DNA of 64,000 nt from Nitrosomonas sp. (GCF_019752095.1 NZ_JAIEMO010000030.1:1144-65143), one strand, 5' to 3'. Shown: positions 11,984 to 15,252, counted from the stretch's first letter. Notes: generated by a model not told the origin, from the sequence alone. Made by a program: numbers and translations.

Positions 11984-12497
11984 TTTGACTCCCCTTAAAA
12001 TAGATGAATTGATTTGTTGATTAGTTGATGGATTAAGAACATCAAGTGTCAGGTTACTAAATATTATCTATTCCGCCTGTGAGAAAAATCACAGAAATGG
12101 AAAGATTGCTAGCTTGAATATTGCGAGAAAAGACTCTTGTGTAATTTTCCTGCGGTGGTTAGATAACTAACTAGATATAATCGGATAAAAGATGATTGGA
12201 GTCAGAGATGGGGATAAGTTTGGGATCAATAGGACTGCCGTGTGTTGCGAGAATTACCAAGGCTGCTGAAGGATTCAACAGCCCCAAATCAACTTTCTAG
12301 TAGGTATTAAAGTACAAAATCGGCAGCAGCGAGTACGTGAAGTCCATTTAATTGGATTTCCATATCGACAACTAAATTACCATCGCCTTCAAACTCTGCT
12401 TGAACAATGGTTCTGTTATTTGCAGCATCCTGAAAGTATCGGACTTCACCACCACCGGTGAAACTATTCGTGCCTCTGAAAATGAATGCATTATCAG
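11950..12497 (+). repeat. 548-bp direct repeat, copy A
   Basis: Matches 13311-13858 at a constant 1361-bp offset, about 4 mismatches by eye. Covers the first codons of RTX1, the whole intergenic region and the last ~190 bp of RTX2. Confidence 0.93.
12051..12093 (-). promoter_or_regulatory. Class II CRP/FNR-family promoter of RTX1
   Basis: TGTGA-GAAAAA-TCACA at 12078-12093; minus-strand TAACCT at 12056-12051 puts the box centre at -41.5. Confidence 0.75.
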
Positions 12498-13344
12498 TAC
12501 CACCACTCACAGCATCGATAGTCGACAGGTCAATTTTATCAACCCCGGGAGTGAAACTATTGATGACGTCTCGATTAGCGCCGACAGCGCTTTCACTCAG
12601 CGCATTGTAGTCGAAAGTATCGTTACCACCACCGCCAGACATTACATCCCTGCCAGAACCTCCGATCAAGGTATCTTGCCCTAATCCACCAAAAATGATG
12701 TCATTGCCATCCTGACCGTAGAGCCAATCGTTACCATTTGCACCATCCAGAGTATCCGCGCCACCACCACCTTTAATGGTGTTGTTGGAGGTATTGCCGG
12801 TGACATTGTCATTGCCATTGCCCATATAGGTATTCTCGAAACCGATAAAGCTTTCACCGCCAAAGTTTGTCAGCCCGGTTAGCATGTTAAACTCATAATC
12901 TCCGCCAAACCATTGATGATCAATGGTATCGACCCCGGTACCACCATTCATGGTTTCGGGACCGTCGCCTGAAAACATCAGATCATCTCCCTCATCACCG
13001 TTATAGGTTCCACCGTCACCATCGGAGGTAATCGTGTCATTGCCGGAATCGCCATTTAGCGTATCTACACCACTGCCACCTTCCAGGGTGTCATTACCTG
13101 CGCCGCCAAATAGGGTGTCGTTACCATTATCTCCATTGATTGTGTCGTTGCCTAGGCCGCCATAGATGGCGTCATCGCCATTGCCGCCAAAAACCTTATC
13201 AGGGCCACCCGCACTGCTGATAATATCGTTGCCGCCGAAGCCCCAAATAGTATCGGCTAAATCTGTTGGAAAAGTGGGTATTCCCGGTGAGATGAATGCT
13301 GTCGTAATGATGTCATTACGATTTGTTCCAGTGATATTAGCCAT
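12307..13344 (-). CDS. RTX beta-roll protein 2 (short paralogue, one internal module)
   Basis: Same repeats as proteins 1 and 3; last ~60 aa identical to protein 3; one SDGDGG...TGLTNFGGES module instead of two. Confidence 0.9.
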   Translation of the reverse strand: MANITGTNRNDIITTAFISPGIPTFPTDLADTIWGFGGNDIISSAGGPDKVFGGNGDDAIYGGLGNDTINGDNGNDTLFGGAGNDTLEGGSGVDTLNGDSGNDTITSDGDGGTYNGDEGDDLMFSGDGPETMNGGTGVDTIDHQWFGGDYEFNMLTGLTNFGGESFIGFENTYMGNGNDNVTGNTSNNTIKGGGGADTLDGANGNDWLYGQDGNDIIFGGLGQDTLIGGSGRDVMSGGGGNDTFDYNALSESAVGANRDVINSFTPGVDKIDLSTIDAVSGGTDNAFIFRGTNSFTGGGEVRYFQDAANNRTIVQAEFEGDGNLVVDMEIQLNGLHVLAAADFVL

Positions 13345-13858
13345 TTTGACTCTCCTTAAAATAGATGAATTGATTTGTTGATCAGTTGACGGATTAAGAA
13401 CATCAAGTGTCAGGTTACTAAATATTATCTATTCCGCCTGTGAGAAAAATCACAGAAATGGAAAGATTGCTAGCTTGAATATTGCGAGAAAAGACTCTTG
13501 TGTAATTTTCCTGCGGTGGTTAGATAACTAACTAGATATAATCGGATAAAAGATGATTGGAGTCAGAGATGGGGATAAGTTTGGGATCAATAGGACTGCC
13601 GTGTGTTGCGAGAATTACCAAGGCTGCTGAAGGATTCAACAGCCCCAAATCAACTTTCTAGTAGGTATTAAAGTACAAAATCGGCAGCAGCGAGTACGTG
13701 AAGTCCATTTAATTGGATTTCCATATCGACAACTAAATTACCATCGCCTTCAAACTCTGCTTGAACAATGGTTCTGTTATTTGCAGCATCCTGAAAGTAT
13801 CGGACTTCACCACCACCGGTGAAACTATTCGTGCCTCTGAAAATGAATGCATTATCAG
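13311..13858 (+). repeat. 548-bp direct repeat, copy B
   Basis: Near-identical to 11950-12497. Confidence 0.93.
13412..13454 (-). promoter_or_regulatory. Class II CRP/FNR-family promoter of RTX2
   Basis: TGTGAGAAAAATCACA at 13439-13454; same -10 as copy A (part of the repeat). Confidence 0.72.
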
Positions 13859-15095
13859 CACCACCATTCACGGCATCGATGGATGACAAGTCAATATTGT
13901 CAATTCCGGGAATAAAACCATTGATGACATCCCGATTAGCGCCGACAGCACTTTCGCTGAGTACGTTAAAGTCAAAAGTATCGTTGCCGCCACCGCCGGA
14001 CATTACATCCCTGCCGTTGCCACCGATCAAGGTATCGTGTCCTGATCCACCAAAAATGATGTCATTGCCGTTCTGACCTAGGATCGTATCGTTACCATTG
14101 GCACCATTCAGAGTATCCGCGCCACCCCCGCCTTTGATAGTGTTGGCAGCGTTATTACCAGTGACATTGTCATTGCCATTGCCCATAAAGGCATTCTCGA
14201 AATTGGTGAAGCTTTCACCGCCAAAGTTTGTCAGGCCGGTCGCCATGTTGAACACATAGTTGCCATTAAAGACGCTATGGTCAATGGTATCGACGCCCGG
14301 CCCACCATTCATGGTTTCGGGCCCCAAACCTGATTTCATGAAATCATTGCCCACATCACCATTATAGATGCCGCCATCGCCATCGGAGGTAATCGTGTCA
14401 TTGCCTGCTCCGCCGAATAGCCTGTCTACACCACCGCCACCTTCCAAGGTGTCATTGCCTGCTCCGCCAAAGATCGTATTGGCAGCATTATTTCCGGTCA
14501 CGGTATCATCGCCCCCACCCATTCTGGCGACTTCGAAATTGGTGAAGCTTTCTCCGCCAAAGTTTGTCAGTCCGGTTGCCATGTTGAACTCATAGTTTCC
14601 ATTAAAGATTCTATGATCAATGGTGTCGACGCCCGGTCCACCATTCATGGTCTCTGGGCCCAGACCTGATCTCATATAATCATTACCTGCATCACCGTTA
14701 TAGGTGCCACCATCGCCATCGGAGAGGATGTTGTCGTTGCCGCCCCCGCCGTTCAGTTGGTCGACACCGGCATTTCCTCGCAATATATCCCTGCCAAAGC
14801 CGCCAAATAAGACGTCGTTGCCGCCACCCCCATTGATTGTGTCATTGTTTGCCCCGCCGTCGATGGTGTCGTTGCCGCCATTGCCGTTAAGCGTGTCGTT
14901 ACCACCGTTGCCATTGATGGTGTCGGCACCCGGGCCGCCAAAAACAGTATCGGGGCCGCCAGCGCTGCTGATAGTATCGTTGCCGCCGAAGCCCCTAACA
15001 GTATCGGCTGATTGTGTTGGAAAGTTGGATACCCCAGGTGAGGTGAATGCAACCGAAATGAAGTCATTATTAGCTGTTCCATTGACTATAGCCAT
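13668..15095 (-). CDS. RTX beta-roll protein 3
   Basis: 475 aa and collinear with protein 1; GG-repeats; C-terminal DFVL. Confidence 0.9.
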   Translation of the reverse strand: MAIVNGTANNDFISVAFTSPGVSNFPTQSADTVRGFGGNDTISSAGGPDTVFGGPGADTINGNGGNDTLNGNGGNDTIDGGANNDTINGGGGNDVLFGGFGRDILRGNAGVDQLNGGGGNDNILSDGDGGTYNGDAGNDYMRSGLGPETMNGGPGVDTIDHRIFNGNYEFNMATGLTNFGGESFTNFEVARMGGGDDTVTGNNAANTIFGGAGNDTLEGGGGVDRLFGGAGNDTITSDGDGGIYNGDVGNDFMKSGLGPETMNGGPGVDTIDHSVFNGNYVFNMATGLTNFGGESFTNFENAFMGNGNDNVTGNNAANTIKGGGGADTLNGANGNDTILGQNGNDIIFGGSGHDTLIGGNGRDVMSGGGGNDTFDFNVLSESAVGANRDVINGFIPGIDNIDLSSIDAVNGGADNAFIFRGTNSFTGGGEVRYFQDAANNRTIVQAEFEGDGNLVVDMEIQLNGLHVLAAADFVL

Positions 15096-15209
15096 TTTGA
15101 ATCTCCTTGAAATTAAAGATTAGAATTGAAGATAAATCTCCTTAAAGATTGATAAATTGTCATTAAAAAGATGAAGATCATCCAGTTTAGATGAGGATCA
15201 TCAGGTACT

Positions 15210-15252
15210 AGATTACTCAATACTGACTATGTTGACTGTGAGAAAAATCACA
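15210..15252 (-). promoter_or_regulatory. Class II CRP/FNR-family promoter of RTX3
   Basis: TGTGAGAAAAATCACA at 15237-15252 in otherwise diverged flanks; minus-strand TAATCT at 15215-15210 again gives -41.5. Confidence 0.78.

Follow-up and report, generated by a model that had tools for sequence, protein, structure and literature searches.

The RTX array and its gene neighborhood

The locus belongs to a freshwater Nitrosomonas and lies within a 64-kb stretch of DNA, which was analyzed over its full length and is referred to here as the window. It comprises three RTX genes and the gene directly upstream of them:

10556-11983, minus strand: RTX1, a calcium-binding repeat protein of 475 aa
12307-13344, minus strand: RTX2, 345 aa, a shorter paralog without one repeat block
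13668-15095, minus strand: RTX3, 475 aa
15446-15976, minus strand: HlyC-family acyltransferase-like gene, immediately upstream of the array
12261-12285, minus strand: terminator-type hairpin after RTX2, with equivalents after RTX3 (13622-13646) and RTX1 (10515-10545)

The three RTX proteins contain tandem GGxGxD nonapeptide calcium-binding repeats and match Pfam PF00353 (HemolysinCabind) with E-values of 1e-36 to 1e-56, in five to eight stretches per protein. They could not be assigned to any named subfamily of toxins or proteases, as every NCBIfam match was far under its cutoff; examples are RTX_toxin (100 bits, cutoff 1000) and serralysin (111 bits, cutoff 500), and the matches were confined to the repeats and the C-terminal region. 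Judged by these domain matches, the label "RTX gene" is correct, and "toxin" would go beyond the evidence. The upstream open reading frame scored 29.6 bits against PF02794 (cutoff 25) and matched no NCBIfam model; it is syntenic in the related loci L001-L003 and L084.

No type I secretion genes (ABC transporter or membrane-fusion protein) linked to the array were found in the window. The adjoining ABC gene (8432-10204) is MsbA-related (TIGR02204, 823 bits, over the cutoff) and scores under the cutoffs of type I secretion models, while the HlyD-like gene at 54210-55382 is part of a CusA/CzcA efflux operon. The secretion genes for the RTX proteins may lie elsewhere in the genome. The window also carries GGDEF and EAL genes (35462-38362 and 40087-42015), which nothing ties to the RTX locus. 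Because a terminator-type hairpin precedes each RTX gene, each would need a promoter of its own, and each is likely to form a separate transcription unit.

A perfect palindrome upstream of each RTX gene

The exact 16-mer TGTGAGAAAAATCACA, hereafter the box, occurs upstream of all three RTX genes:

12078-12093, minus strand: box copy 1, reading TGTGATTTTTCTCACA on the gene strand, with the RTX1 ATG 95 nt downstream
13439-13454, minus strand: box copy 2, with the RTX2 ATG 95 nt downstream, inside a 538-bp repeat shared with copy 1
15237-15252, minus strand: box copy 3, with the RTX3 ATG 142 nt downstream and flanks 72% identical to those of copy 1

The preliminary description had located the box at these three positions and seen no further perfect copy in the window, and the 64-kb scan bore out both points. 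Perfect TGTGA-N6-TCACA sites numbered three, compared with a mean of 0.07 in shuffled sequences, none of which attained three. Degenerate boxes with at most two mismatches were not enriched (19 found, 32 expected), and the sole one-mismatch box, at 24470, lies within a permease gene; a wider regulon within the window is thus not indicated.

The 538-bp repeat that holds copies 1 and 2 spans the 3' end of an RTX gene, the terminator, the box promoter and the opening codons of the RTX gene that follows:

11960-12497 and again 13321-13858: 538-bp repeat, 3 mismatches, 99.4% identical

Since both copies lie within this repeat, they amount to a single observation. Copy 3 is a diverged paralog of the other two, the box-1 and box-3 promoters being paralogous and 72% identical over 85 nt. 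The earlier view that there are two independent sequence contexts is accordingly not supported. Each RTX gene does have a box, as had been proposed, but by tandem duplication and not by independent recruitment; on the evidence of these repeats, the three copies stem from gene duplication.

Conservation of the box among relatives

The box was found upstream of all orthologous and paralogous RTX genes in the Nitrosomonas relatives L001-L003 and L081-L084. L003, from N. supralitoralis APG5, carries the locus in single copy. Searches of sequencing runs for the locus yielded only contigs of metagenomic DNA from relatives about 93% identical, and four runs aligned to it showed flat, DNA-like depth and no 5' ends. 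For comparison of the promoters, 11 non-identical homologous sequences from the window and the Nitrosomonas relatives were aligned, representing four lineages whose flanks are only 56-72% identical. In this alignment the box was the top-ranked 16-column window, with 13 of its 16 columns and nine of its ten half-site columns invariant, against 33% of columns over the whole alignment. The only half-site variant was an A-to-G change, giving TGTGG in one half-site of two promoters. Two of the six spacer positions vary (TTTTTC, CTTTTC, CTTTCC and TTTTCC were seen) and four, TTT and C, are invariant; conservation of these four is not required of a pure CRP-type site. The five columns on either side of the box are nearly all variable. 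At a background of 33%, finding at least nine of ten half-site columns invariant has a probability of about 3e-4 for a pre-specified window and about 0.05 after correction for all windows.

Fixed half-sites, a varying spacer and scrambled flanks fit a dimeric DNA-binding protein. This pattern supports the view that the box behaves as a constrained protein-binding site, and it is probably a real regulator-binding site. The evolutionary depth is shallow: all carriers are closely related, their RTX proteins sharing at least 81% identity, and the box is absent upstream of more distant RTX homologs in Nitrosomonas and Nitrosospira.

Candidate -10 element and class II spacing

Downstream of each box, a candidate -10 hexamer lies within the heptamer GTAAYCT:

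12051-12056, minus strand: candidate -10 TAACCT for RTX1, within the invariant GTAAYCT, 21 nt past box 1
13412-13417, minus strand: candidate -10 TAACCT for RTX2, 21 nt past box 2
15210-15215, minus strand: candidate -10 TAATCT for RTX3, 21 nt past box 3

The minus-strand hexamers noted previously for RTX1 (12056-12051) and RTX3 (15215-15210) were confirmed. GTAAYCT is invariant in the aligned promoters, 21 nt downstream of the box (22 nt in L084), and 29.5 bp lie between the box center and the start of TAAYCT (30.5 bp in L084). The hexamer agrees with TATAAT at just three of six positions. Within GTAAYCT, the putative -12 and -7 positions are occupied by T and -11 by A; at -35 the sequence is CAGGCG or CAGTCA, matching the consensus at no more than three of six positions.

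The preliminary description had placed the box center at -41.5 in a class II promoter. The 29.5-bp spacing agrees with that placement, which assumes a start 7 nt after the hexamer. Likewise, the spacing fits a class II promoter, an assignment that hinges on one of two candidate -10 elements, the other of which lies upstream of the box and is considered below.

Candidate regulators

The box was earlier attributed to an activator of the CRP/FNR family. The constrained CRP-type site is consistent with this, but no such protein is encoded in the window, where a Pfam scan of all sizeable open reading frames gave no cNMP_binding or HTH_Crp match, and none was found in the flanks of the relatives' loci. 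With E. coli CRP and FNR as tblastn queries, the only match among the window and 101 loci was in L030, an alphaproteobacterial bin in which a gene with cNMP_binding and HTH_Crp_2 domains lies beside RTX, type I secretion ABC and HlyD-type genes. A survey of one N. europaea and one N. oligotropha-like genome listed a single CRP/FNR homolog per genome, an FNR (PMC8510549, Table S4). The FNR consensus TTGAT-N4-ATCAA lacks the base by which the two kinds of site are told apart: a G in third place in TGTGA marks CRP-type, not FNR-type, recognition, and Arg180 of the recognition helix sets the G of TGTGA versus TTGA (PMC1274295).

Cyclic-nucleotide sensing by the regulator, whether of cAMP or of another nucleotide, is conjecture. 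The CyaB-type enzyme of N. europaea, predicted to be an adenylate cyclase, is reported to act as a triphosphatase (PMC3440374), and cAMP is not favored as the ligand. The literature on Nitrosomonas RTX regulation, CRP, cAMP and c-di-GMP offered nothing specific to this locus.

Alternative explanations

Rival promoter-like elements, together with a hairpin, lie upstream of the boxes:

15279-15308, minus strand: element upstream of box 3, TTGTAT (15308-15303), 18 nt, CATAAT (15284-15279)
12117-12144, minus strand: element upstream of box 1, TTACAC (12144-12139), 16 nt, AATATT (12122-12117), recurring at 13478-13505 for RTX2
15255-15272, minus strand: hairpin GCTGGAAATCGTTTCAGC, between the HlyC-like gene and box 3

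It is possible, if unlikely, that the true promoter is the upstream TTGnnn-18-CATAAT, or TTACAC-16-AATATT in the case of RTX1 and RTX2, so that the box would sit at about +21 to +36 as an operator through which a regulator, of the CRP family or not, represses, with transcription beginning where the GCTGGAA...TTCCAGC hairpin begins. Of the 12 sigma-70 consensus positions, TTGnnn-18-CATAAT matches eight to nine, CATAAT agreeing at five of six positions and TAAYCT at three; the TTG and CATAAT parts line up in three of four promoter lineages, and a promoter scan flags the equivalent TTGCTA-18-CATAAT in L084. The start predicted at box 3 (about 15272) falls on the hairpin's first base; the hairpin would thus form a 5'-terminal stabilizing stem-loop and carries two compensatory pair changes, a degree of covariation that is not significant against shuffles (84/500). 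However, CATAAT is replaced by CATTGT in L003 and by TGCAAT or CAATAT in RTX1-type copies, and the scan yields such elements at the chance rate (1 found, 1.1 expected) and none in L003. Moreover, the hairpin survives in promoters located after the HlyC-like gene and has decayed in those after another RTX gene, while the RTX1-type promoters that lost it retain the box and GTAAYCT, whose invariance an upstream promoter does not account for. Alternatively, the palindrome could be bound by another dimeric family (for example TetR, XRE or GntR type) or by a relaxed FNR, the likeness to the E. coli CRP consensus being coincidental, which we consider distinctly unlikely. FNR is the sole CRP/FNR homolog reported in Nitrosomonas genomes (PMC8510549, Table S4), no CRP-type gene lies near the RTX locus, and partial conservation of the spacer suggests that the motif may be longer and asymmetric. 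In L071, another Nitrosomonas genome bin, a near-copy with the same T-rich spacer, TGTGATTTTTATCACC, lies upstream of an AraC-family gene. Against such proteins speaks the 5-6-5 palindrome with exact TGTGA and TCACA, a hallmark of CRP-type members, as well as the same box adjoining the CRP-family gene of L030; a relaxed FNR is further disfavored by the discrimination of FNR against G at this position (PMC1274295). Readings of the region as sigma-54, RpoE-type, lux-box or LacI-type sequences did not fit when the sequence was read by eye.

A role of the box at the RNA level is, in our assessment, improbable. The transcribed box would form a hairpin with a 5-bp stem and a 6-nt loop, either within the 5' leader of the RTX mRNA or as the tail of the HlyC-like transcript, and would combine with the upstream hairpin and the U-rich loop to influence termination, processing or stability. 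The scan scored GTTGTGATTT and the hairpin preceding it as terminator-like, the only half-site change (A to G) retains a G-U pair, and predicted folds set both hairpins side by side (L003, -17.1 kcal/mol, z = -3.65). Yet the box stem has just 5 bp, the copies in the window are no better folded than shuffles (z = -1.6), four of the five pairs never vary and no compensatory change is seen. The flank bases that would extend the stem are not conserved, and the U-run does not adjoin the upstream stem. As the box is retained where the upstream hairpin decayed, it is not merely part of a hairpin or terminator. We rejected the box as a structured RNA, given weak folding and no stem covariation, and also as the terminator U-tract of the HlyC-like gene in a sole explanation, given that RTX1-type promoters lost the hairpin and retain the box. 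It would be more surprising still if the box had no function and were a chance palindrome of the ancestral promoter, inherited by duplication and recent descent. The close relatedness of all carriers is compatible with this, as are the recent duplicate among the window copies (two of the three) and the many consensus motifs that could have been spotted in 64 kb. Against simple inheritance speak the 13 fixed box columns next to nearly all variable ones across the four lineages, and the half-site invariance at the probabilities given above.

Proposed mechanism

The reading that we tentatively adopt, with somewhat less than an even chance of being right, is that the 16-mer is a CRP-type site for a dimeric helix-turn-helix protein, serving class II-type activation and copied with the RTX genes. 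Its regulator would have CRP-type specificity, recognizing GTGA-N6-TCAC, and would cover CAGGCG or CAGTCA, which make a poor -35 region. Bound at a distance of 29.5 bp from the weak but invariant -10 element TAAYCT, it could recruit RNA polymerase. CRP-type regulators combine an effector domain with a helix-turn-helix bearing equivalents of Arg180, Glu181 and Arg185; a recognition helix of the form Arg-Glu-x-x-x-Arg/Lys predicts GTGA, and Glu-x-x-Ser-Arg predicts TTGA. As part of a promoter module, the box would have been copied with each RTX gene as the array grew by tandem duplication, so that RTX1, RTX2 and RTX3 would all answer one signal. Overall, the box is a plausible and ordinary regulatory site. 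A more far-reaching version, which we regard as rather unlikely, holds that an unrecognized CRP-type regulator, or an FNR with an altered recognition helix, class II-activates the RTX array in a clade of ammonia oxidizers. The signal for such a protein might be a cyclic nucleotide or of another kind, and its targets would be HlyC-associated secreted RTX proteins, encoded by an array of varying copy number in obligately chemolithoautotrophic hosts.

Comparison with known systems

Class II CRP promoters of E. coli (galP1 and melR type; the Busby and Ebright model) carry TGTGA-N6-TCACA centered at -41.5. The Nitrosomonas promoters share the perfect core, the distance of 29.5 bp between the center and a TAnnnT hexamer, and the poor -35 region. 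They differ in a -10 element matching at three of six positions, in a start position that is predicted only, and in their host, a chemolithoautotrophic betaproteobacterium in which cAMP signaling is doubtful; in addition, the A/T positions that border the core in the 22-bp E. coli consensus are missing, and the spacer is partly conserved. A similar geometry is known from cyanobacterial promoters activated by NtcA, a CRP-family activator centered at -41.5 in promoters without a -35 element, which read GTA-N8-TAC, 22 nt, TAN3T. The corresponding Nitrosomonas arrangement is GTG-N8-CAC, 22 nt, TAAYCT, with a half-site of GTG instead of GTA and no tie to nitrogen control here, whereas NtcA is cyanobacterial.

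RTX genes under CRP control are likewise known. The rtxHCA operon of Vibrio vulnificus, an RTX cluster that includes an acyltransferase, is under direct CRP control. It encodes a MARTX toxin in a pathogen with canonical cAMP-CRP, whereas Nitrosomonas is a nitrifier with small RTX proteins that have no recognizable toxin domain. In L030, CRP-type boxes are present in all three intergenic regions, with nAnnnT hexamers 29.5 bp from the box center. This unrelated cluster offers a supporting precedent: it resembles the Nitrosomonas locus in having RTX genes with TGTGA-N6-TCACA promoter boxes and hexamers at class II distance, although the latter locus has neither an adjacent CRP-family regulator nor type I secretion ABC and HlyD genes in the cluster. 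The RTX proteins of the two are only 34% identical. Under the more far-reaching version given above, L030 would seem to represent a separate origin of the same design in Alphaproteobacteria. In L068 (Methylobacterium), a perfect box is followed by an RTX ATG 166 nt downstream. The same DNA motif is used by Xanthomonas Clp, which is c-di-GMP-responsive, and Pseudomonas Vfr, both of which govern secreted proteins, and by Desulfovibrio HcpR, for which it is given as wTGTGAnnnnnnTCACAw (PMC1274295). Given this range of users, neither cAMP nor catabolite control can be read from the motif itself. None of these regulators has a recognized ortholog in Nitrosomonas.

Implications for nitrifier biology

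Neither CRP-type boxes at -41.5 nor RTX genes controlled by CRP are new, and general principles are unchanged by the present findings. To our knowledge, next to nothing has been established about how nitrifiers control their secreted or surface proteins, and few regulators have been described in Nitrosomonas (NsrR, FNR, Fur and similar). A conserved operator before an abundant-looking RTX family offers bait for the regulator and its signal, and the box is a possible regulon marker for a scan of the complete genome. Should the regulator prove CRP-type, this would demonstrate cyclic-nucleotide-style control in a host that lacks carbon catabolite repression.

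Box sites and the RTX genes

The 16-bp box TGTGAGAAAAATCACA, a CRP-type TGTGA-N6-TCACA palindrome, was confirmed at 12078-12093, 13439-13454 and 15237-15252, and these are the sole perfect matches in the 64 kb, as the preliminary description had held. Dinucleotide-preserving shuffles yielded a mean of 0.07 perfect sites and never reached three; with up to two mismatches allowed, 19 sites were observed against 32 expected, so degenerate boxes are not enriched in the window. Each of the three boxes lies upstream of a minus-strand gene for an RTX calcium-binding repeat protein, the array being preceded directly by an acyltransferase-like gene.

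Genes of the RTX array and its upstream neighbor
10556-11983, minus strand: RTX1, 475 aa, Pfam PF00353
12307-13344, minus strand: RTX2, 345 aa, Pfam PF00353
13668-15095, minus strand: RTX3, 475 aa, Pfam PF00353
15446-15976, minus strand: HlyC-family acyltransferase-like gene (PF02794, 29.6 bits), directly upstream of the array

RTX1-RTX3 are RTX repeat proteins (PF00353 E-values of 1e-36 to 1e-56). Against named toxin and protease families all their scores fell under the cutoff, and no type I secretion genes adjoin the array. The proteins are small (345-475 aa) and lack any pore-forming domain; Lys321 in NTIKGGGG, considered with regard to an acyltransferase target, is invariant.

Elsewhere in the window, within 2141-2997, a 140-aa ORF matches the C-terminal part of HipA alone (positions 125-213 of the 213-position profile); it shares 4 nt with a GNAT acetyltransferase ORF and may be a truncated toxin-antitoxin remnant. 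Genes for c-di-GMP signaling are also present, encoding a dCache-PAS-GGDEF-EAL protein (966 aa; 35462-38362) and a GGDEF protein (642 aa; 40087-42015). A 145-aa protein encoded at 26896-27333 (minus strand) shows full-length matches to Host_attach (PF10116) and to bacterial-archaeo-eukaryotic release factor family 12 (PF18856).

Duplication of gene and promoter

The three boxes do not represent three independent events. The 538-nt segments 11960-12497 and 13321-13858 have just three mismatches (99.4% identity) and comprise the 3′ end of an RTX gene, its terminator, the promoter and the first codons of the next gene. Because these surrounding segments are so nearly identical, copies 1 and 2 of the box are a single observation, having arisen by unequal crossing-over or gene conversion. 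The promoter of copy 3 is a diverged paralogue of that of copies 1 and 2 (72% identity over 85 nt), and the earlier claim of independent sequence contexts therefore fails. Each RTX gene does have its own box, as proposed, but joint duplication of promoter and gene accounts for this pattern in place of separate recruitment. Among close relatives (L001, L002, L003, L081 and L084) the array varies from one to three copies, and RTX2 is a shortened recombinant from which one ~130-aa block is missing. Recombination appears to be active at the locus.

Distribution and conservation of the box

A scan of species-representative genomes with RTX3 assigned the window to Nitrosomonas, with the nearest matches in the Nitrosomonas loci L001 (96%), L002 (94%) and L003 from N. 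supralitoralis APG5 (84%); L081-L084 came from an added metagenome scan, and similar DNA occurs in sequencing runs from drinking water and wastewater. These relatives maintain the order PpiC-type isomerase, HlyC-like gene, RTX gene(s), MsbA-related ABC gene, and the number of RTX genes in a genome runs from one to three; in L001-L003 and L084 the common order extends to an HpnG-like phosphorylase and squalene-hopene cyclase. Every RTX gene in the clade formed by the window, L001-L003 and L081-L084 is preceded by the box; RTX homologues at greater distance, among them those of other Nitrosomonas and of Nitrosospira, are without it.

Forms of the box upstream of RTX genes
TGTGATTTTTCTCACA: window, L001a, L081a
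TGTGACTTTTCTCACA: L003, L083, L084
TGTGACTTTCCTCACA: L002
TGTGATTTTCCTCACA: L081b
TGTGGTTTTTCTCACA: L001b, L082

Another Nitrosomonas genome bin (L071) carries TGTGATTTTTATCACC at 1408-1423; it has a single mismatch and agrees with the box in its T-rich spacer and its orientation. This site precedes an AraC-family regulator gene by 153 nt, adjoins a two-domain LuxR/GerE-family gene and has a distant RTX-like gene 2.6 kb away; either relatedness to the box or chance may account for it.

Promoters were aligned for 12 sequences (11 non-identical) from four lineages whose flanks share only 56-72% identity. Across the 155 alignable columns 33% are invariant, compared with 13 of 16 in the box and nine of ten in its half-sites, making the box the highest-ranked 16-column window; variation in the spacer falls at positions 6 and 10, and nearly all of the five columns on each side are variable. 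Against the 33% background, the probability of at least nine invariant columns in ten is ~3e-4 for a pre-specified window and ~0.05 when corrected for all windows. At the level of the alignment, constant half-sites combined with some freedom in the spacer and unconserved flanks form the pattern expected of a dimeric DNA-binding protein. Summed over three protein-binding models, the box is predicted with good confidence to be a real protein-binding site.

An action of the box as RNA is possible but not favored. A hairpin, (A)GCTGGAA-ATCR-TTCCAGC(T), adjoins the box on its upstream side.

Hairpins adjoining the box
15255-15272, minus strand: window
3871-3890: equivalent in L003
~1366-1387: equivalents in L083 and L084

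It is fully paired in every promoter following the HlyC-like gene, contains G-U wobbles in different lineages, and has two pairs altered on both sides (G-C to A-U), which is not significant against shuffles. In RTX1-type promoters, where the gene upstream is an RTX gene that has its own terminator, the hairpin has decayed; it probably serves the HlyC-like transcript as a terminator or as a stability element. The RNA reading is disfavored because the box is retained where this hairpin is lost, its own 5-bp stem shows zero compensatory changes, and folding of the window copies does not surpass that of shuffled sequences.

Promoter architecture

Since a terminator-type hairpin of the upstream gene precedes each RTX gene, each probably has its own promoter within the conserved block. 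Both previously named hexamers are present, TAACCT at 12056-12051 and TAATCT at 15215-15210; the first recurs at 13417-13412. GTAAYCT is invariant in all promoters and follows the box at 21 nt (22 nt in L084); shortly 3′ of it comes a second conserved island, TG.TC.T.AT. If TAAYCT served as the -10 element, the box would be centered at -41.5 of a weak, activator-dependent-looking promoter: the hexamer retains T at -12, A at -11 and T at -7, all invariant, yet matches TATAAT at only three of six positions, and the -35 position reads CAGGCG or CAGTCA. The arithmetic behind the proposed -41.5 is correct (21 nt between box and hexamer, box center 29.5 bp from the first hexamer base), but the value requires a transcription start 7 nt beyond the hexamer.

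Alternatively, an upstream element could be the promoter, placing the box at about +21 to +36 as an operator.

Candidate upstream elements
15308-15279: TTGTAT-18-CATAAT, RTX3
L084: TTGCTA-18-CATAAT
RTX1 and RTX2: TTACAC-16-AATATT

This element is closer to consensus than TAAYCT and was flagged by a promoter scan in L084; transcription from it is predicted to begin at the first base of the hairpin 15272-15255. However, it varies, reading CATTGT in L003, where the scan gives no match, and such matches arise at chance frequency. The invariance of GTAAYCT and a parallel spacing in the alphaproteobacterial locus L030 lead us to prefer, modestly, TAAYCT as the putative -10. Among class II features, the motif alone is firmly present, and the spacing fits only relative to this putative -10. 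The site resembles a class II CRP-type promoter and, equally, the NtcA layout (GTA-N8-TAC, 22 nt, TAN3T); CRP-type class II activation is tentative, falling somewhat short of an even chance.

Shortly 3′ of the candidate -10 lies a palindrome, TTGATG-N9-CATCAA (12026-12046, minus strand), with a counterpart, TTGATGA-N7-TCATCAA, in L003 (~3943-3964); RTX3-type promoters instead carry two GATGA-N3-TCATC palindromes 21 nt apart (~15163-15200). These could be a 5′-proximal RNA hairpin or a second operator. The RTX3-type leader (15096-15160, minus strand) has a ~47-nt insertion relative to the RTX1 type, which doubles the Shine-Dalgarno region, so that AAGGAGATT is present twice.

Candidate regulators

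The G at the third position (TGTGA, not TTGA) marks CRP-type recognition and is dictated by Arg180 in the recognition helix (PMC1274295). Neither the window nor the flanks of relatives contain a CRP/FNR-family gene, a published survey lists FNR as the sole CRP/FNR homologue in one N. europaea and one N. oligotropha-like genome (PMC8510549, Table S4), and N. europaea has a CyaB-like "adenylate cyclase" that is reported to be a triphosphatase (PMC3440374); for these reasons a cAMP-CRP system is unlikely. Candidates for the predicted binder are a CRP-type protein that has escaped detection, an FNR of changed specificity and a member of some other family, and regulator identity is the weakest link in the proposal of a CRP/FNR-family activator.

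CRP-type boxes at RTX clusters of other taxa

In L030 (3078-8651), from an alphaproteobacterial genome bin, genes for a CRP-family regulator, an RTX protein, a type I secretion ABC protein and an HlyD-type protein form one cluster. The regulator (cNMP_binding and HTH_Crp_2), whose recognition helix SRESLNK retains the Arg-Glu pair, is encoded divergently from the RTX gene, and the type I secretion ABC and HlyD-type genes come after the RTX gene. All three intergenic regions contain CRP-type boxes (TGTGAAGCAGATCACG, TGTGATGCCCTTCACA and TGTGAGACACCTCACA), and nAnnnT hexamers (CAAATT, TAGGTT and CATCAT), as read from the sequence, each start 29.5 bp from the box center, the class II distance. 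L030 is a candidate locally regulated RTX secretion system. Additionally, in a Methylobacterium locus (L068) a perfect box precedes an RTX ATG by 166 nt, and a second, near-perfect box is present. Of 15 sites with at most one mismatch outside the Nitrosomonas clade, four lie no more than 400 nt upstream of the RTX match, a zone that makes up 5% of the sequence. CRP-type control of RTX clusters appears, from these arrangements, to be a recurrent design, which makes a CRP-type reading of the Nitrosomonas box more plausible and the finding itself less new.
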